Shown here: piece by piece, positions 6,879-15,660 of the stretch | How positions within the stretch are numbered: position 1 is the first letter of the stretch | Layout: each line of letters begins with the position of its first letter | The notes under the pieces: generated by a model | The model's input: only the letters and a program-made list of their open reading frames with translations | Told to the model about the DNA's origin: nothing | Databases searched by the model: none | Translations under genes and position numbers: made by a program | IMG/VR virus record: IMGVR_UViG_2744054628_000009 | Coordinates: 1 to 22,665 of that record | Direction: 5' to 3' (one strand) | Source: a virus | Taxonomy: Duplodnaviria > Heunggongvirae > Uroviricota > Caudoviricetes | Length of the DNA: 22,665 nucleotides

Positions 6879-7529
6879 TCAGCGGCTGTCATTGCGCAGT
6901 CTGCGCTCCAGCTGCTGTTTGTCTTTTTTCACGCCACAGCGGGGATCAAGCTGTAACGCATGGTTGAGATGATTAAGGGCGGAAGCCGGATTGCTTTCAC
7001 TCAGGACAGCGCCAATCGCTTTATGCAGACGCGCCCGTGACTGGTCCGGCATATCCAGACCGTCTGTCAGCTCCAGCGTCTGCAACAACAGATCGGCATC
7101 AAAGCCGGTGGCGGCAAGCATTGCGCTCTGCGCGGCGTCTGCCATTTCCTCTGCCAGCACGGTCTGCACGTTGCGGTTACCCAGCGGCATCACCCAGCCA
7201 TGACGCAGGGCATGACGCCCGATCTCCAGCGCCCCGGCATAATCTCCGGCATCAATGCGCCACAGCATCACGTACATCAGCACATCATCCTGTTGAGCGC
7301 CTCCGGCAGCCAGGACACCCTCTGCCCAGGCGGCGTACTTCGGCAGCAGCTCCACCTTGATTTCCGCTTTTTTGACCGTGGACTGAACACCCTTGAGACG
7401 GCGGCGGTCTTCCGCCAGTTGCAGCAGCATCAGGTCATAGCCCGATGCGTGGCGAACACTGCCGCCCTCGCGGGCGGCCTGTTCAGCCTGAACGCGCAGG
7501 CGATGCTGCCGTGCGGGACTCAGGCTCAT
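6879..7529 (-). CDS. M: Terminase small (endonuclease) subunit gpM-like
   Basis: MSLSPARQHRLRVQAEQAAREGG...AQQDDVLMYVMLWRIDAGDYAGALEIGRHAL... matches remembered P2 gpM from residue 1; GGAG ribosome-binding site about 7 nt upstream on the minus strand. Confidence 0.75.
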   Translation of the reverse strand: MSLSPARQHRLRVQAEQAAREGGSVRHASGYDLMLLQLAEDRRRLKGVQSTVKKAEIKVELLPKYAAWAEGVLAAGGAQQDDVLMYVMLWRIDAGDYAGALEIGRHALRHGWVMPLGNRNVQTVLAEEMADAAQSAMLAATGFDADLLLQTLELTDGLDMPDQSRARLHKAIGAVLSESNPASALNHLNHALQLDPRCGVKKDKQQLERRLRNDSR

Positions 7530-9015
7530 GGATTACGCTCCGGTTTCGGCTGCGGCGGCGCTGAAATCACCAATCTGGATGTTTTCCAACCGCAATAAAG
7601 GCCCACGCCGTCAGCCGGAAAAGAATGTTTTCACCGATGAGCAGATTGAGAAGCTGGAAGAAATCTTCCATTCCTCCATGTTCAACTACCAGCGCCACTG
7701 GTGGGAAGCCGGAAAAACCAACCGCATCCGCAACCTGCTGAAGTCACGCCAGATCGGCGCGACCTTCTATTTTGCCCGTGAAGCCCTGATTGACGCCCTG
7801 CTTACCGGACGTAACCAGATTTTCCTTTCTGCCAGTAAGGCTCAGGCCCACGTCTTTAAACAATACATCATCGACTTTGCCAAAGAAGTCGAGGTGGAGC
7901 TAAAAGGCGATCCGATGGTGCTTCCTAACGGAGCCACGCTTTACTTCCTCGGCACCAATGCCCGCACGGCCCAGAGTTATCACGGCAACCTGTATCTGGA
8001 TGAATATTTCTGGATACCGAAATTCCAGGAGCTGCGCAAAGTGGCTTCCGGGATGGCTATTCACAAAAAATGGCGACAAACCTATTTTTCCACGCCATCC
8101 AGCCTGACCCACAGTGCTTATCCGTTCTGGTCCGGTGCGCTGTTCAACCGTGGACGCAACAAAGCTGACAAGGTGGACATCGACCTGTCCCACAGCAATC
8201 TGGCCCCCGGCCTGCTGTGCGCAGACGGGCAATACCGCCAGATAGTCACCGTGGAAGATGCGGTGCGCGGCGGCTGTAACCTGTTCGACCTCGACCAGCT
8301 ACGCATGGAGTACAGCCCGGACGAATACCAGAACCTGCTGATGTGCGAGTTCGTGGACGATCTCGCGTCCGTGTTCCCGCTCAGCGAACTGCAGGCGTGC
8401 ATGGTGGACAGCTGGGAAGTCTGGACCGACTTTCATGCACTGGCCCTGCGCCCGTTTGGCTGGCGCGAAGTGTGGATCGGTTATGACCCGGCAAAAGGTA
8501 CGCAGAACGGCGACAGTGCCGGATGCGTGGTGGTGGCTCCGCCAGCCGTGCCGGGTGGTAAGTTCCGCATTCTTGAGCGTCACCAGTGGCGCGGGATGGA
8601 CTTCCGCGCCCAGGCTGACGCCATCAAAAAACTCACCGAACAGTACAACGTGACCTATATCGGTATCGACTCAACCGGCGTTGGTCACGGGGTTTATGAG
8701 AACGTGAAAGCGTTCTTTCCTGCCGTCCGGGAGTTTGTCTACAACCCCAATGTTAAAAACGCCCTGGTACTCAAGGCCTACGACATTATCAGCCACCGCC
8801 GTCTGGAGTTTGACGCCGGGCACACCGACATTGCGCAGTCATTCATGGCAATCCGTCGCGCCACCACCGCCAGCGGCAACCGCCCGACCTATGAAGCCAG
8901 CCGCAGCGAAGAAGCCAGCCACGCCGATCTGGCCTGGGCAACGATGCACGCACTGTTTAACGAACCGCTGCAGGGCGAATCCGCCAATACCAGCAATATT
9001 GTGGAGATTTTTTGA
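7528..9015 (+). CDS. P: Terminase large (ATPase) subunit gpP-like, probably truncated at the 5-prime end
   Basis: Walker-A-like LKSRQIGAT; 4-nt overlap with the Q start. The M start codon abuts this ORF with no room for the divergent promoters or for O and N. The first 20-30 codons of the ORF are probably not native. True start not determined. Confidence 0.65.
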   Translation: MDYAPVSAAAALKSPIWMFSNRNKGPRRQPEKNVFTDEQIEKLEEIFHSSMFNYQRHWWEAGKTNRIRNLLKSRQIGATFYFAREALIDALLTGRNQIFLSASKAQAHVFKQYIIDFAKEVEVELKGDPMVLPNGATLYFLGTNARTAQSYHGNLYLDEYFWIPKFQELRKVASGMAIHKKWRQTYFSTPSSLTHSAYPFWSGALFNRGRNKADKVDIDLSHSNLAPGLLCADGQYRQIVTVEDAVRGGCNLFDLDQLRMEYSPDEYQNLLMCEFVDDLASVFPLSELQACMVDSWEVWTDFHALALRPFGWREVWIGYDPAKGTQNGDSAGCVVVAPPAVPGGKFRILERHQWRGMDFRAQADAIKKLTEQYNVTYIGIDSTGVGHGVYENVKAFFPAVREFVYNPNVKNALVLKAYDIISHRRLEFDAGHTDIAQSFMAIRRATTASGNRPTYEASRSEEASHADLAWATMHALFNEPLQGESANTSNIVEIF

Positions 9016-10040
9016 TGGGAAAGAGTAAGAAAAACCGCGCTGCGGCGACGAATCAGCTCAAGCATAAAAGCCAGACTTCAGCCGAAGCATTCAGCTTTGG
9101 CGATCCCGTTCCTGTTCTGGACCGCCGTGAACTGCTGGACTATGTGGAATGCGTACAGATGGACCGCTGGTATGAGCCGCCCGTCAGCTTTGACGGACTG
9201 GCACGAACCTTCCGCGCTGCCGTGCATCACAGCTCACCGATTGCAGTAAAATGCAACATTCTGACCAGTACCTACATCCCTCACCCGCTGCTCAGCCAGC
9301 AGGCTTTTTCACGTTTTGTGCAGGACTATCTGGTATTTGGTAACGCCTACCTGGAGAAACGCACGAACCGCTTCGGTGAAGTTATCGCCCTTGAGCCTGC
9401 TCTGGCAAAATACACCCGACGCGGGTTAGACCTGGATACCTACTGGTTTGTGCAATACGGTATGACAACCCAGCCGTATCAGTTCACGAAAGGCAGCATT
9501 TTTCATCTGATGGAACCGGACATTAACCAGGAGATCTACGGCCTGCCCGGCTATCTTTCTGCCATTCCGTCCGCCCTGCTCAATGAGTCCGCCACGCTGT
9601 TCCGCCGCAAGTATTACATTAACGGTAGTCATGCAGGCTTCATCATGTACATGACCGATGCTGCGCAGAACCAGGAGGACGTGAACAACCTCCGCAATGC
9701 AATGAAAAGTGCCAAAGGTCCGGGTAACTTCCGCAACCTGTTTATGTACTCGCCTAACGGCAAAAAGGACGGCCTTCAGATCATCCCTTTGTCAGAAGTT
9801 GCGGCGAAGGATGAGTTTCTAAATATCAAGAACGTGAGCCGGGATGACATGATGGCAGCACATCGCGTTCCGCCACAGATGATGGGGATAATGCCTAATA
9901 ATGTTGGGGGATTTGGGGATGTAGAAAAAGCTAGTAAGGTATTTGTGAAAAATGAATTATTACCATTACAAAAAAGAATGAAAGAATTTAATCATTGGAG
10001 CGGTGAAGAAATTATAAAATTCGAGAGATATCAAATTTAG
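9012..10040 (+). CDS. Q: Portal protein gpQ-like
   Basis: 342 aa (P2 gpQ is about 344 aa), immediately downstream of P with an ATGA overlap. Confidence 0.8.
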   Translation: MMGKSKKNRAAATNQLKHKSQTSAEAFSFGDPVPVLDRRELLDYVECVQMDRWYEPPVSFDGLARTFRAAVHHSSPIAVKCNILTSTYIPHPLLSQQAFSRFVQDYLVFGNAYLEKRTNRFGEVIALEPALAKYTRRGLDLDTYWFVQYGMTTQPYQFTKGSIFHLMEPDINQEIYGLPGYLSAIPSALLNESATLFRRKYYINGSHAGFIMYMTDAAQNQEDVNNLRNAMKSAKGPGNFRNLFMYSPNGKKDGLQIIPLSEVAAKDEFLNIKNVSRDDMMAAHRVPPQMMGIMPNNVGGFGDVEKASKVFVKNELLPLQKRMKEFNHWSGEEIIKFERYQI

Positions 10041-10041
10041 C

Positions 10042-10066
10042 AAAGTGCCTCTAAAAGAGGCGCTTT
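10042..10066. terminator. Hairpin between the convergent Q and DprA-like genes (possible bidirectional terminator)
   Basis: aaagtgcctct-aaa-agaggcgcttt: an 11-bp stem with one G-T pair, A-rich on the 5-prime side and T-rich on the 3-prime side. Confidence 0.45.
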
Positions 10067-11039
10067 AAATCAAGTCTAATGTACTCTGTTTCCCTGGCCA
10101 TTTTAGCTCTAACAAATACTCCCGAGACTCATTTATGATCATAATCACATCATCATAATCCCGTTTTGTTTTTAACGCTCTAGCCATGTTGCTCTTAACT
10201 AAATCAACTGTTCCCTCACAATTAAGATTAAGCGGATTATTAGGTAGGTGAGGTACAACCGCAAACACTGGTCTTTTCGCCTTATTTGCAAACTCAGCTT
10301 GAGTTATCGTTCCGCTATTTAACGCAGCCTCGATTAAAATTGAACCTGCAGATAATCCAACTTGTATCCGATTTCTTTGTACAAATGATTGTTTCTGGGC
10401 CGGTCGACCCATAGGATACTCAGAAATCCATGCACCACCTTTATCCAGAATCTCTTGAGCAAGTCGACTGTTTTGCTTCGGCTTAGCCTCCTCAAGACCA
10501 TGCGCCAAGACAGCAATGGTTTTTCCTTTTGCTTGTAACGTTGCCTTATGAGCATTCGCATCAGTGCCTATTGCTAACCCACTTACAACAATATACCCAG
10601 CAGACACTATTTGATTAGTGATTCGCCTCGTTATTTCTTCCCCTGCAGGGGAAGTATCACGGGATCCTACAATTGCGACACCCGGCAATTCTTTTAGTAT
10701 ACTTTTATCCCCTTTTATGTAGAGAATTGATGGTGGATTAGGAGTAAACGCTAAACTAAGAGGATAGAATTCAGACCCATATGGTATTAGCTCCACACCA
10801 TTAACATGGTGGTTCTCCAATTCAGCATTCGCTATTAGAAAATCAGTCTCAGATATTTTATCTTTTAGAAACCCGTGGCTATTAACCATCTCAGTTAAGT
10901 CGCGTATATCACGAATAACATCAAAATCAATAAGCTCAAAGAATTTCAATACACTTTGATCAGATGCTAGCTTCCCGATTTGAATAGCTAATCCAAGTGT
11001 ATTTTTTAATTCTTCTGAGTGCACTTTGCTACTCCTCAT
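10065..11039 (-). CDS. shosA: DprA/Smf-like (SLOG-fold) protein; ShosA-like
   Basis: C-terminal region VAIVGSRDTSPAGEEI...SGLAIGTDANAHKATLQAKGKTIAVLAHGLE...QRNRIQVGLSAGSILIEAALNSGTI fits the DprA Rossmann-domain pattern. Start overlaps the upstream PRTase gene by 11 nt; an AGGAG precedes an alternative GTG at 11027. Confidence 0.65.
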   Translation of the reverse strand: MRSSKVHSEELKNTLGLAIQIGKLASDQSVLKFFELIDFDVIRDIRDLTEMVNSHGFLKDKISETDFLIANAELENHHVNGVELIPYGSEFYPLSLAFTPNPPSILYIKGDKSILKELPGVAIVGSRDTSPAGEEITRRITNQIVSAGYIVVSGLAIGTDANAHKATLQAKGKTIAVLAHGLEEAKPKQNSRLAQEILDKGGAWISEYPMGRPAQKQSFVQRNRIQVGLSAGSILIEAALNSGTITQAEFANKAKRPVFAVVPHLPNNPLNLNCEGTVDLVKSNMARALKTKRDYDDVIMIINESREYLLELKWPGKQSTLDLI

Positions 11040-11604
11040 AGTTTGCAGTTTCTAGCAGAGCTAATGGCATTATAACTCCAGCTCCTGCAGACTCCAGTAA
11101 ATAAAAACACGCAGACAAACTACCGCCTGTTGTTTTAACATCATCTAGTAGTAACACATTTCGCCCCATGAGGTTACCACCCCTAACTCTGATACTAGAC
11201 ATGTGACCAGTAATTGAGCGATCTCCTCCTTCACGATGTGCGCTAGGAACAGTGCGTGTTCTTTCCAAACAGCAATCAACAATGCCCCGACGGTGAACAT
11301 TTACGATTCGCTCGGCGACCTCAATCAAAGCCGGTGAAATTCTGCCTTCAGTGTGAGATGGGACGACTGCTATCGAAAAAGGAGACTCAACAAAACGCCC
11401 ACCGCCACCTCTGATTACTAACCGCCCAACCTTATCTATAGCTAATCGAGAAAAACGGTTAATAGCCCTTTGATGATTACGATTATTTTCATCCTTAAAA
11501 TCCATCATCTGCCTTGATAGTTCATCGCTATGAGGGTTGCGCTCTCCCAAATGCCAGTAGGGGTGATACAAGCCACACGATGTAACACTTACGGGTAAAA
11601 GCAT
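11029..11604 (-). CDS. shosT: Phosphoribosyltransferase-domain protein; ShosT-like
   Basis: Type I PRTase PRPP-binding motif VLLLDDVKTTGGSL near residue 150; 191 aa; translationally coupled to the DprA-like gene. Confidence 0.65.
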   Translation of the reverse strand: MLLPVSVTSCGLYHPYWHLGERNPHSDELSRQMMDFKDENNRNHQRAINRFSRLAIDKVGRLVIRGGGGRFVESPFSIAVVPSHTEGRISPALIEVAERIVNVHRRGIVDCCLERTRTVPSAHREGGDRSITGHMSSIRVRGGNLMGRNVLLLDDVKTTGGSLSACFYLLESAGAGVIMPLALLETANYEE

Positions 11605-11761
11605 TCTTTATTCTCATGTAGTCCTAACTCAAACAATGTTAAGCGAAATGATATTTCATAGACAAACATAAAATTAAGAATAATCTCAATGATCACATTT
11701 TTGATTATGAAACAAAGCCAAGAGTTAGCGCGCGCTCGTATCCCCGCCACGCCTGCCCGCT

Positions 11762-11880
11762 TTATGCAGTGGTTTTCATGCACATGCATGACATGAGCAA
11801 AAGCCCGCCAGTTCTGGCGGATCTGAGCAAAGACGATCCTCAATCGATCATGCGATTTCATGCAGCATAGTCATGCACTG
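11762..11880. repeat. Cluster of (T/A)CATGCA heptamer repeats flanking a GC-rich inverted repeat
   Basis: TCATGCA at 11776, 11857 and 11869; variants TTATGCA at 11762 and ACATGCA at 11782; inverted repeat ccgccag-tt-ctggcgg at 11805-11820. Lies in a 528-bp intergenic region between divergent genes. Confidence 0.4.
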
Positions 11881-12132
11881 TCAAGGAAGTGAAAATCCGT
11901 ATCTGAATGGCCACTTGAAAAACGGATCATACGGGTTTACAAAGATGAATGTTCGCTGTGAACGGGAAGCGGAAGTTAACTTTCAGATAACATAATCCAT
12001 ATGCACGAGAACCTCTAAAATAGAATGGGACACCTAAGCGGGGTACTTACAACGATTCTTTCCATATTCACAGTTAACACTCTGTTTGGCGTATTTTTAT
12101 TCAAATAGCAAACACCAATAAAAGGAGTTTCC

Positions 12133-12468
12133 ATGAACAATATTCCCCCTATACCACAGTTAGGAATTTATGTCTCAAAAATCGATCCCACCCTACGTAT
12201 CACTGTAACCGATGTTGATATTGTTGATGGTGAGGATGATTCTCCTGATGATGAATTGTTTTATTTAGTCCACTGGATCGAGGGGGAAGATGAAAGTGAT
12301 ATGACAGCAATGGGATTTGAGCTAGACCCATTAGAGTGGCAGGCTTTCGTTGAATCTGAGCAATTAGTGTTTGAGCGTGATCCGTACATGGATTCAATCC
12401 CCGAAAATTCAAACTTGGCAAAGATTCGGGATTTTCTCATGAAGACTAAACAGAATGATCATTCGTAA
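12133..12468 (+). CDS. Highly acidic small hypothetical protein (111 aa)
   Basis: Strong ribosome-binding site AAAGGAG 7 nt before the ATG; protein very rich in D/E (DVDIVDGEDDSPDDELF...EGEDESD...); no family recognised. Confidence 0.6.
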   Translation: MNNIPPIPQLGIYVSKIDPTLRITVTDVDIVDGEDDSPDDELFYLVHWIEGEDESDMTAMGFELDPLEWQAFVESEQLVFERDPYMDSIPENSNLAKIRDFLMKTKQNDHS

Positions 12469-12660
12469 GTGTAAGCATCCATCAGGAAAATGGTTTTGTA
12501 AGTGAATCATCAACTTTTAGAGAGTCTCAGACACTCCCACTTCTGCTTCTGACACAAAGCGGACGATCACTTATCAAAATAACCGCCCACCTTACGCCTT
12601 ATTTCACTCATTGCCCAAACTAGCCCCCATCAGAATGAATCCTCCTGGGGGCAACATTTC

Positions 12661-12894
12661 TTAATGCAGCCAGCTGTCGTCCTCCCACACCTTCTGCATA
12701 ATTTTCATCACTTGTTTTCTTTCTTCATCCAGTTGCAGTCCGGTTAGTTCCACACCGTTAGAGCTACCTTTGCGAATGCGAATTACCGTTTTGGGATACA
12801 GGGGGCGCAGATTGCGGTAAAGCTCGGATTCAAGTGCGTCCAGGGTAGACTGGCTAATCTTCTGCTCTTTATCGATCATTATTTCAATGCGCAT
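12661..12894 (-). CDS. DinI-like protein
   Basis: MRIEIMIDKEQKISQSTLDALESELYRNL...KIMQKVWEDDSWL resembles DinI (MRIEVTIAK...). Own GAGGTG ribosome-binding site; the ORF-track start at 12966 is likely an artefactual extension. Confidence 0.7.
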   Translation of the reverse strand: MRIEIMIDKEQKISQSTLDALESELYRNLRPLYPKTVIRIRKGSSNGVELTGLQLDEERKQVMKIMQKVWEDDSWLH

Positions 12895-12904
12895 AAAAGT
12901 CACC

Positions 12905-13093
12905 TCAGCTGATGACATCCATTGAGCGGTTGTATTCGTGGCTTCTGATTTTTGCCATGAGTTCATCAGTCAATTCAGAAACCCACTGCAGAGCCAGCCC
13001 CTTCTCTTCATCACTACACTCACTAGCCGCTACAAGCTTAAGAAAAAAATCAATGCGCTGGAGCTTCAAAGACTCCAAAAAATAGTCCTGCAT
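12905..13093 (-). CDS. Small SOS-regulated protein, first gene of a LexA-controlled operon (Tum-like antirepressor candidate)
   Basis: 62-aa ORF preceded by an AGGAGG ribosome-binding site and a LexA box; its stop overlaps the ribosome-binding site of the DinI-like gene. Function inferred from position only. Confidence 0.5.
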   Translation of the reverse strand: MQDYFLESLKLQRIDFFLKLVAASECSDEEKGLALQWVSELTDELMAKIRSHEYNRSMDVIS

Positions 13094-13133
13094 CTTTCCT
13101 CCTATGACACCAAAACAATACTGTATACATAAC

Positions 13134-13153
13134 CACTGTTTATATTTACAGTA
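13134..13153 (-). promoter_or_regulatory. LexA operator (SOS box) in the promoter of the tum/dinI-like operon
   Basis: caCTGTttatatttACAGta is a perfect CTGT-N8-ACAG with an AT-rich spacer, 41-60 nt upstream of the ATG at 13093; a CTGT half-site sits at 13121-13124. Confidence 0.7.
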
Positions 13154-13245: not shown

Positions 13246-15660
13246 TTAATACAGGTTCCGCCACTTATCATCTTCCTTCAGACGCTGGTTCCGATAGAAG
13301 ATACGCAGGCCTGCTCCTGACGGAATACTGCCGCCGCGAAGGAGCAAATCGACTTCTTTCTCGCTGCCATCAAATCCCCTGGACTTCAGTTCATAGACGA
13401 GCTGCTGTCGCTGATGGTCTGTAATTCGCTGTTTGTAGTCTTTACGCCGTTTCGGTTTCACCTGGCGTAACCTTGCAGCCAGTTCCCGGCGCTCTTTTTT
13501 GCTCATACTGTGCAGGTAATCGTGCAACTCCTTGTCATTCATACGGGTAATATCCGTTCTGGAGTCCCCATCAGCTGATTTGTCTTTCCCTTGTTGGTTC
13601 AAATTTTCAGCAAGGGGACAGTTATTGCCACGAGTCCAAGGGGCGCAAGCGCCCTGGTCGGCTGCCGCCTCCTGAACGTCAACGACCTTACGAACCATTT
13701 TCCATTTCATTGCATGAGTGCAGATCTTGCCCTGTACAATGGGTGACCAGATGCCATAAATACGAATACCGTGATCGCCATAAGCGGTCGGCTCTTCGTT
13801 AATTTCATAAGCTGTTCTGATAAGGTGATATTTGCGGGGAACCAGTACGCCGCCCTGCTTCATGATGTAGGTGGCAAAACAGCCAGCATCAGCGGCAGCC
13901 AGGATGGCATCAAGGCGCGGGTCATCCAGTACCGGCGCACCTGCTTTTTTATCACCCTGTTGCCTTGCCGCCTGACCAGCCAGCAAGCGAAGTTCACGGT
14001 ACGCCTGACGCCCCGGAATACCAAAGAAGCGGAACTGCTGAACACGATGCAGAGACGCCCAGGCATTAACGTATTCGGCGTTATCACGCAGGGATTTACC
14101 CGTTTCCTTGCTGATCTCGCCAGCCAGACCACGTCCGTCAATGTTCTTACTGATGTATTTCGCGATGTAGCTTGTCGGCGTTCCTTTGCGCGGGTTTATC
14201 AGCTCAGACTTAAAGCGTGGACCCGTGTTATTGCCCAGTTCCTCGCGGTCTTCACGGATGGCAAACTTACGCAACAATGCAGTAATGGCGCGGCGGTCTT
14301 TTTTGCGCATGAAACACATGAGATGCCAGTGCACAGTACCGTCATGGTGCGGCTCAGCCACCCGCACGCCATACCAGCGCAACCCGGCTTTGTGCATAGC
14401 CTTACGAAATGCAGCAAACATGCCGACCAGATAATCGCTGCTTTGTCTTACCGTCGCATTTGTCCAGGTTGGGTTTGGTCTGCCGTTATTGAGCGTAGAA
14501 TGGAAACGTGACGGACAGGTAATGGTGTAGAAAACGGCGCAGTCACCACGCATTTCCGCGATAAGCTCCAGACCTTTAACACAGGCCATCATCTCATTGC
14601 GGCGGTGCGCCGGGTTGCTGCTGCTGGCGTTTACCACGTCTTCCATATCCAGCGTGTCGCCGTCTTCGTTCACCAGTTCATGAGAACGGAAAAACTCCAG
14701 CGACTTGCGGCGCTGCTCACGTTTATGCGTCACTGCTTCATAGCTGACATAGGGAGATGCTTTTTTGCTGACCAGGCAGACAGCACGCAACTGCTCTTCC
14801 CGCCATTCGCAACGTATCTTCCACAATTTTCGATACCACCAGTCGGCGCAAAGCATACGTGCCAGCGAACCCGGTATGAGTTCATAGGGCACGGGTTTGC
14901 GGCGGTTTCTTTTCCGACGGAGTTTCTCAAACGCAGGCGGGATAACATCCAGACGCAGGGTTTCCGCTGCCACCTTTTCCCATGTCTTGCGGATTTCTTC
15001 TGGCTTAACGTCATCGGAGGCATACAAATCACCACAAGCGGCCTCAAGACACATGCTCATATGCGCTGCTACCAAGGTGGACAGGCGTTTTACCTGATCC
15101 TGACTCATTTCAGGTAGGATCAGCAGGCCCTCAAGCCCTTGATGGCTTGCCATAAAACGGAAAGAAGCGGATAGCTGACTGTCGCGTACATACTCCAGTC
15201 GCTCCAGACATGACTTAATCGTCTCACGCAAATAGCGGGAATAAGCCTTTGGCCTGCCCAGGCTGCTGAAGTATTCGATACGTTGCATCAGCGGCTTGCT
15301 GATGTGGGTGGGCTGGGCGCTGACGTCCGCCAGAATGACCATGTCCGGGTTAAAACGCTGCTGCTCATGCGCCAGCTTTGCCCGACTAATGAGATTATCC
15401 TGCTCCATTTCGCGCTGGACAGGATCACGGGATTCATTAAAGAAATAACGCTCCCAGACCTGCTCACTCAGTGCATCGCGGCGCAGCTGTTCCTGCTCGT
15501 TATCGGCAGCGTACAAAGTGATCATGTTTGAAAGTGCAGACTCCGGCGCAACTTCCGCCGGGTCCAGATAAGGGTTAATGGCCTTTTTCGGGCCGTTCCA
15601 TGAAAATGCTGCAGCGGCCTCGTTAAAGCCGCTAGAGTTGCTCATATCATCATGACTCAT
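13246..15660 (-). CDS. A: Replication initiation protein gpA-like (rolling-circle nickase)
   Basis: 804-aa ORF at the end of the early operon with an ATGA overlap to the upstream dam gene; sequence recalls P2/186 gpA. Confidence 0.8.

Follow-up and report, generated by a model that had tools for sequence, protein, structure and literature searches.

The DUF8087 gene beside cos of a 186-like prophage: a small acidic protein of integrated elements and its possible role as a binding decoy

In phage P2, the genes tin and old are situated between orf91 and the cohesive-end site (cos), start near cos, and run antiparallel to gene A; in phage 186, orf97 is found between tum and cos. Few known sources of anti-phage systems are as rich as the cos-proximal hotspot of P2 and P4. 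The subject of this report is a gene residing in this hotspot in a viral DNA stretch of 22,665 nucleotides (Caudoviricetes; positions 1 to 22,665 of the IMG/VR record IMGVR_UViG_2744054628_000009), referred to below, at its full length, as the window. The gene codes for a very acidic protein of 111 amino acids (aa) from the family DUF8087. The portal-to-gpA hotspot described by Rousset et al. (PMC9122126) is in fact two slots parted by cos, and the gene is located in the second of them, between cos and a DinI-like gene.

Like P2 old/tin and 186 orf97, the DUF8087 gene is an optional, swappable cargo of the same slot; with old and tin, it also shares the orientation, i.e., antiparallel to A and reading inward from cos. 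The likeness does not extend to the products, which display no sequence or domain similarity to the DUF8087 protein: Old is an ATPase–nuclease, Tin and Orf97 comprise 253 and 243 aa, respectively, whereas the 111-aa DUF8087 protein is acidic and lacks an effector domain. Hence, by position, by its organization as an antiparallel unit, and by optionality, the gene appears to match the genes of the P2 old/tin type. It is a cos-proximal accessory cargo of P2-like prophages, ordinary in position.

As to the protein, the closest described counterparts are Ocr (gp0.3 of T7) and ArdA, elongated helical mimics of B-DNA with a dense negative charge, encoded in early or leading regions; genes of the Ocr, ArdA, and KlcA types are common in plasmids and phages. 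Another is CarS of Myxococcus xanthus, an antirepressor of SH3 topology reported to mimic operator DNA (PMC2926617). DUF8087 itself was known before as a catalogued DUF with neither an assigned function nor a solved structure. A literature search on DUF8087, WP_001059831, and DNA mimics in P2-like phages found no paper on the protein. Hotspot screens set aside proteins below 120 aa, and therefore the gene is listed only as “hypothetical”, e.g., in Table S5A of Rousset et al. (PMC9122126); it was not assayed there, since arrangements consisting solely of proteins <120 aa were dropped.

The acidic protein and its family

The open reading frame (ORF) begins with ATG at 12133 and ends with TAA at 12466-12468 of the + strand. 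Together with its flanks, it forms the following unit:

11958..12132, + strand: conserved leader, 175 nt, delimited by comparison of standalone copies
12067..12097, + strand: predicted promoter-like site TTCACA-19 nt-TATTTT, from comparison of leader copies
12122..12127, + strand: Shine-Dalgarno sequence AAGGAG, spaced 5 nt from the ATG, evident from the sequence itself
12133..12468, + strand: DUF8087 coding sequence, 111 aa, net charge -19 (ORF call, charge computation, phrog_17127 match, homologs, and AlphaFold2)
12456..12505, + strand: 5'-end remnant of a P2-type integrase gene, MIIRKCKHPSGKWFCK*, overlapping the ORF end and marking the right cassette edge

The initial annotation, drawn from the bare sequence, described a strongly acidic product preceded by a strong ribosome-binding site (RBS), and both descriptions hold. 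The protein contains 15 Asp and 11 Glu vs. 7 Lys/Arg (23.4% D+E), which gives a computed net charge of -19 and an isoelectric point (pI) of ~4.05, the negative charge being densest at residues 26-60; the RBS is the AAGGAG listed above. Among the 19 genes of the phage region, this product is by far the most acidic, with a charge of -17.1 per 100 aa; the runner-up has -8.1, and values of -5 to +12 are seen in the remaining 17. The GC content of the ORF is 40% vs. 48% in the window.

The same annotation considered the protein an orphan, which turned out to be wrong. It matches phrog_17127 end to end (residues 1-111 of 111, E 6.6e-70); a search of 5.8 billion proteins returned 61 homolog clusters, all of them pre-annotated as PF26332 (DUF8087), and RefSeq names the copies “DUF8087 domain-containing protein”. 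The clusters come from Escherichia, Klebsiella, Raoultella, Enterobacter, Citrobacter, and Serratia as well as from Morganella, Providencia, Edwardsiella, Pectobacterium, and Xenorhabdus. Compared with PF26332/phrog_17127, the window protein is a typical member showing no difference. An exhaustive profile search of 1.84 billion representatives yielded 35 clusters at 50% identity, and a metagenome scan added only two loci. In E. coli, the gene is present in ~2.4% of complete genomes; a 99%-identical copy (WP_001059831.1) resides in the P2-like remnant of strain BL21(DE3), and the gene is also found in REL606.

The distant relatives are 70-130 aa long, ~30-45% identical, and have the core residues 8-80 in common. 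In 30 sequences with identities as low as 26%, P8, G11, and W69 never vary, and Y13, V25, V28, V46, D56, E63, and L78 are nearly invariant. The net charge amounts to -7 to -22 in all 64 of the 64 members examined; therefore, acidity itself is a property under selection in this family. The window protein gave no match in local Pfam, NCBIfam, and PADLOC scans, the local Pfam perhaps lacking the PF26332 model; a Pfam scan of the 30 members at E up to 10 produced only scattered single matches, and a sequence-profile search of the PDB at the same threshold produced none. Overall, these Pfam/NCBIfam/PADLOC, PDB-profile, and 30-member Pfam scans assigned the protein to no enzyme, defense, or structural family.

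The 61 homolog clusters, the pairwise dN/dS of 0.07-0.25 among nine copies from different genera, and the occurrence of the exact sequence on at least 587 contigs confirm that the ORF is a real gene under purifying selection and not a chance ORF. The same findings bear on the notion of a non-functional leftover, i.e., a hitch-hiking fragment of an old repressor–integrase operon. The dead integrase fragment held by the cassette and the several truncated DUF8087 copies in databases would be compatible with it, but the low dN/dS across genera, the ORF kept intact and identical on hundreds of contigs, the conservation of the leader and RBS, and the retention of the charge and of P8, G11, and W69 in members down to 30% identity render a mere leftover very improbable.

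The AlphaFold2 model, built with 64 sequences (mean pLDDT 83.3, pTM 0.68), predicts a small beta-barrel plus helices, with strands at residues 11-15, 22-31, 43-50, 61-64, and 78-82, a helix at 66-76, and a C-terminal helix at 94-109. The poly-acidic loop 32-41 is of low confidence; its length varies across the family from 0 to ~12 residues. Foldseek detected no match to the model in the whole PDB (best E 1.1, TM <=0.32) and nothing significant in BFVD.

The product is thus a soluble, extremely acidic protein carrying no catalytic, membrane, or DNA-binding signature. In view of these missing signatures, it would most likely act stoichiometrically, as a decoy or a DNA-mimic-like inhibitor that binds a positively charged protein, probably one with affinity for nucleic acids, and thereby blocks it. 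We tentatively prefer to read the product as an acidic binding decoy produced from the integrated element, with somewhat less than even confidence. The nearest mechanistic model is offered by CarS, an acidic small beta-barrel protein that works purely through sequestration of a DNA-binding protein; the comparison is an analogy and implies no family assignment.

As the initial annotation proposed, a protein of this kind could also serve counter-defense, acting as an acidic DNA-mimic-like inhibitor that would shield the DNA of the element from a host nuclease or defense (restriction, RecBCD, or other DNA-sensing systems) when the element enters, replicates, or is induced. Like Ocr and ArdA, the DUF8087 protein is small, very acidic, non-enzymatic, and encoded by a mobile element, in this case by a single gene without known domains, and its net charge and D+E content match their dense negative charge. 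However, the structural comparison with Ocr and ArdA proposed in the initial annotation was negative: the predicted small beta-barrel plus helices bears no resemblance to their elongated helical fold, and no solved DNA mimic, Ocr and ArdA included, was found to resemble the protein in fold or sequence. In contrast to genes of early or leading regions, the DUF8087 gene is situated in a repressor–integrase operon or antiparallel to replication genes, i.e., in the lysogenic operon or on the lysogenic strand. It was found by tblastn in 0 of 50,697 phage records and is present in 1 of 72,556 plasmids, the lone plasmid match being a 45-kb record with the same cos-side/DUF8087/DinI stretch as in the prophages (97.8% identity). 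Such a distribution is not what would be expected of a general anti-restriction gene of the Ocr/ArdA kind. Furthermore, a 2026 preprint survey of P2 prophages reported only the Anti_RM and Anti_CRISPR types of anti-defense (28 of 1511; bioRxiv 10.64898/2026.02.27.708500), DUF8087 not being among the recognized types. Taken together, a counter-defense function looks unlikely, although certain genomic contexts described below speak in its favor.

The mobile cassette and its genomic contexts

In the window, the leader, the ORF, and the integrase 5'-end remnant add up to a cassette of 548 bp. The leader accompanies the ORF in every standalone copy and has a sharp left edge at window position 11958 (seven copies from six genera in unrelated surroundings). 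Between the window and the other copies, its divergence is 0.17-0.21 vs. an ORF dS of 0.27-0.41, i.e., about half of the synonymous rate. The promoter-like site is kept with at most one substitution in the -35 element in seven of the seven leader copies; its spacer is suboptimal and harbors the inverted repeat ACAG-N8-CTGT. A stricter promoter scan did not report a site at 12067-12097. The leader has no match in Rfam, and the covariation term of RNAalifold was unfavorable. A riboregulator function of the leader was considered and dropped: the possible pairing of its 5' end with the RBS is mostly A-U and G-U and displays no compensatory changes.

On the right side, similarity runs ~45 nt downstream of the ORF, into the 5' end of the P2-type integrase gene. 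Relatives retain longer, 56-aa integrase remnants (e.g., 8444-8611 of locus L002) or an intact overlapping integrase (e.g., 7324-8331 of L029). No canonical terminator was found for the unit, the only hairpin being that at 12623-12652, shared with the DinI operon. Set against a phage moron, an autonomous promoter–gene–terminator unit, the cassette displays presence/absence variation between otherwise similar phages and the lower GC content noted above, along with the conserved but weak promoter-like site. A 127-aa protein of phrog_26730, whose hydrophobic N-terminal stretch is probably a transmembrane helix, comes after DUF8087 and the integrase remnant in several genera as well as in slot 2 of certain 186-like phages, L064-L066 (8659-9042 of L002; 8538-8918 of L064-L066). 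The window cassette is devoid of it.

The likely source of the cassette is apparent from P2-like prophages of Klebsiella aerogenes and Buttiauxella and from several such prophages in IMG/VR, where the order is intact: a CI-type repressor, a 215-aa tail-anchored Flk_N-like protein, DUF8087, and integrase. The stop codon of DUF8087 overlaps the integrase start by 4 nt (GTGA) in Klebsiella and by 14 nt in the lineage that gave the cassette. Because this intact order of CI, DUF8087, and integrase exists elsewhere, the window copy is a cassette that was detached from a lysogeny operon and ended up in slot 2. The 215-aa Flk_N-like protein is always paired with DUF8087 in the CI–integrase interval in Klebsiella and Buttiauxella (6343-7327 of L028; 9341-10333 of L007; L072-L075), and its central part matches the PHROGs of the Ant antirepressor (phrog_245, E 7e-7), so the two genes may constitute a two-gene module. 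A derivation of the leader from this upstream Flk_N gene of the operonic form was ruled out.

DUF8087 is also a fixed component of small integrative elements, represented by Nitrosospira and three metagenome or read-assembly contigs (5470-10439 of L024; 5276-10573 of L033; L076; L077). The subfamily from these elements bears a basic N-terminal extension (consensus MGQAKLRGSKEERIAQ..). The gene order there is integrase, zero to one variable gene, DUF8087, and, divergently, alpA (HTH_17) with a GPA-type replication protein; in four of four elements DUF8087 is next to the integrase and divergent from alpA-GPA. Two of the four contigs reach beyond GPA, and both carry swapped defense cargo: a TIR-NLR-like protein of 1262 aa in one of them and a BglII restriction–modification (R-M) system plus OLD/UvrD in the other. 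These minimal integrase/DUF8087/alpA/GPA elements might be satellites or mobilizable islands.

In Morganella, the cassette occupies a CP4-57-like island, where it is flanked by a helicase-PLD gene on one side and by the island backbone on the other. In Pantoea, a solitary intact DUF8087 gene is located 330 bp from tRNA-Leu(taa)/tRNA-Cys (8001-8811 of L025); since a P2-like prophage of K. aerogenes is integrated beside the same tRNA-Leu gene, the Pantoea copy seems to be all that remains of a decayed element. Further copies were found in an inovirus-like prophage (with Zot and secretin) and in another myovirus-like contig. An association with GPA/HUH rolling-circle replication genes, seen in the P2-like phages, the minimal elements, and the inovirus-like prophage, was examined as a possible property of DUF8087 and rejected: GPA/HUH was absent within 8-10 kb at the E. 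coli 3150, Serratia, Symbiopectobacterium, Lonsdalea, Proteus, and Pantoea loci and at L034, and the link is seen as a property of the host elements.

Some of these contexts would suit counter-defense: the gene is spread over several unrelated kinds of mobile element (two P2-like lineages, the inovirus-like prophage, the myovirus-like contig, and integrative islands); it belongs to the backbone of the minimal int/alpA/GPA elements; in the window it is the gene nearest to cos, at 380 bp; and a KlcA/ArdB-type antirestriction gene is found ~4 kb away from it in the backbone of the Morganella island.

Other contexts suggest a regulator of the element's own life cycle. In this scenario, DUF8087 would restrain the arm-binding domain of the integrase, AlpA/excisionase, the repressor, or the GPA nickase of its own element, being an antirepressor or anti-activator in the CarS manner. 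Across deep divergence, the integrase gene is the most consistent neighbor of DUF8087, its start is overlapped in both of the geometries mentioned above, and the cassette carries the integrase remnant along; in the minimal elements, DUF8087 takes the place of an immunity gene beside the integrase, and in the P2-like prophages it is always paired with the tail-anchored Ant-like protein. On the other side, the gene is optional in the 186-like prophages of E. coli, where ~132 of the ~1314 genomes with the cos element possess it, and the loose cassette turns up in islands sharing no backbone, which fits poorly with the idea of a dedicated partner. Hence, own-element control also seems unlikely, at about the level assigned to counter-defense.

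Returning to the binding decoy, in those contexts where the gene order is readable, DUF8087 can be placed on the maintenance (lysogenic) side of integrated elements, which would imply its expression in the integrated state. The window copy is a self-contained single-gene accessory cassette made up of the leader with its putative promoter, the DUF8087 ORF, and a scrap of the integrase gene.

Possible role of the DUF8087 protein

The role that we would prefer for such a decoy is lysogenic conversion or the exclusion of competing elements. It is favored by the slot and orientation shared with old/tin, by the base rates of the hotspot, by the restriction of the gene to integrated elements, and by the retention of a solitary chromosomal copy. 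With regard to the base rates, six of eight unknown P4 hotspot loci were defensive (bioRxiv 10.64898/2026.02.27.708500). This assignment is a doubtful one, with counter-defense and own-element control as close rivals and some probability left for another function or none.

In a broader and equally uncertain form, DUF8087 might represent a new family of small beta-barrel, DNA-mimic-like decoys specific to chromosomally integrated elements (P2/186-like and inovirus-like prophages and the minimal int/alpA/GPA elements), produced in the integrated state and each neutralizing one DNA-binding protein. The target could be the repressor or replication initiator of a competitor or helper, the integrase of the element itself, or a host nuclease. 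Even in distant bacteria, DUF8087 is tied to integrases and the integrated state, which narrows the search for this target, and the presence of the gene in the laboratory strains BL21(DE3) and REL606 makes its function readily testable. If the protein is a decoy inhibitor, a new fold would be added to the small set of DNA-mimic-like proteins; if it is a decoy of integrated elements, a new kind of exclusion or counter-defense factor would have gone unnoticed in these two strains.

Prophage anatomy around cos and the neighboring ShosTA pair

The window is a 186-like prophage (Peduoviridae). Its genes and sites outside the cassette include:

7528-9015: terminase
9012-10040: portal
10041-11723: slot 1, portal to cos, occupied by ShosTA
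10065..11604, - strand: ShosTA-type defense pair in slot 1, a neighbor and not part of the unit (PADLOC)
10065-11039, - strand: DprA (PADLOC ShosA 2.8e-70)
11029-11604, - strand: PRTase (PADLOC ShosT 3.6e-14)
11724..11880, no strand: cos region, the border of the two variable slots (blastn vs. the phage 186 cos junction)
11881-12660: slot 2, cos to DinI, occupied by the DUF8087 gene
12661..13151, - strand: SOS-type operon of the phage backbone, convergent with the DUF8087 gene, a neighbor and not part of the unit (ORFs, Pfam, LexA box)
12661-12894, - strand: DinI-like gene, 77-aa form (DinI Pfam 1.2e-22)
12905-13093, - strand: 62-aa ORF
13136-13151: perfect LexA box CTGTTTATATTTACAG preceding the 62-aa ORF and the DinI-like gene
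13246-15660: gpA
beyond gpA: Dam-like methylase

The cohesive-end sequence GGCGTGGCGGGGATACGAG is read on the - strand from 11753 to 11735, its counterpart in phage 186 being GGCGTGGCGGGGAAAGCAT; the region 11728-11792 can be aligned to the joined phage 186 ends (blastn, E 2e-11) and to the P2 right end. A listed 90-aa ORF (11589-11861, - strand) runs across cos and its conserved flank and is probably no gene; one related record has a short pseudogene annotated at the equivalent place (2940-3134 of L041).

Homology shared among the DUF8087-bearing prophages starts exactly at cos (query position ~1684-1688), which suggests that cos is a recombination boundary. The content of both slots varies. 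Slot 2 is empty in phage vB_EcoM-813R9, and Klebsiella phages have unrelated genes there; among the 186-like prophages of E. coli, it may alternatively contain a gene for a DUF2971 protein matching the PADLOC candidate PDC-S31 (4849-5967 of L040) or for a GNAT acetyltransferase in the same orientation as DUF8087 (3354-3773 of L041). As regards slot 1, ten loci with the identical DUF8087 protein carry ShosTA, a retron, GmrSD, SIR2 plus an ATPase, a three-gene unknown, and two single unknowns, and the BL21(DE3) copy adjoins a retron of the St85 family, not ShosTA. The slot-1 sequences of 38 loci comprising portal, cos, and DUF8087 group into 24 clusters, ranging from 180 bp (essentially empty) to 2.5 kb. 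The two slots swap cargo independently, an arrangement of the hotspot whose recognition is useful beyond the DUF8087 gene.

The initial annotation placed the gene between a ShosTA-like pair and an SOS-regulated operon, on the strand opposite to both, and this setting is borne out: the pair by the PADLOC matches, the operon by the perfect LexA box, and the strands by the coordinates given above. Its further suggestion that the protein could be a regulator or partner of the adjacent module, i.e., a third component, regulator, or antidote of ShosTA, was refuted by the co-occurrence analysis. The suggestion draws on proximity only (528 bp, opposite strand). The gene is separated from ShosTA by cos and coexists with the 24 cargo clusters; among complete E. 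coli genomes, the cos element was detected in ~1314 of 5426, and ShosTA accompanies DUF8087 in only 9 of the ~132 with the cos-DUF8087-DinI arrangement. Conversely, strain CFSAN061761 possesses the same ShosTA (98.8% identity) with the DUF2971 gene replacing DUF8087 in slot 2, so the ORF is absent next to otherwise identical cargo, an outcome that the annotation itself had named as evidence against its proposal. In addition, DprA plus PRTase is reported to be a two-gene system protecting against T7 and lambda (PMC9122126). Since the slots assort independently, the role of a ShosTA partner is rejected as extremely improbable, and membership of DUF8087 in ShosTA is rejected as well in view of the inconsistent co-occurrence and the missing PADLOC match.

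The LexA box of the SOS-type operon has its counterpart in p95 of phage 186. Between the convergent DUF8087 and DinI genes, there is a GC-rich hairpin, GCCCCCA...TGGGGGC, at 12623-12652. It has no clear U-tract on either strand and was not reported by the terminator scan; by analogy with t95a of phage 186, it may operate as a weak bidirectional terminator.

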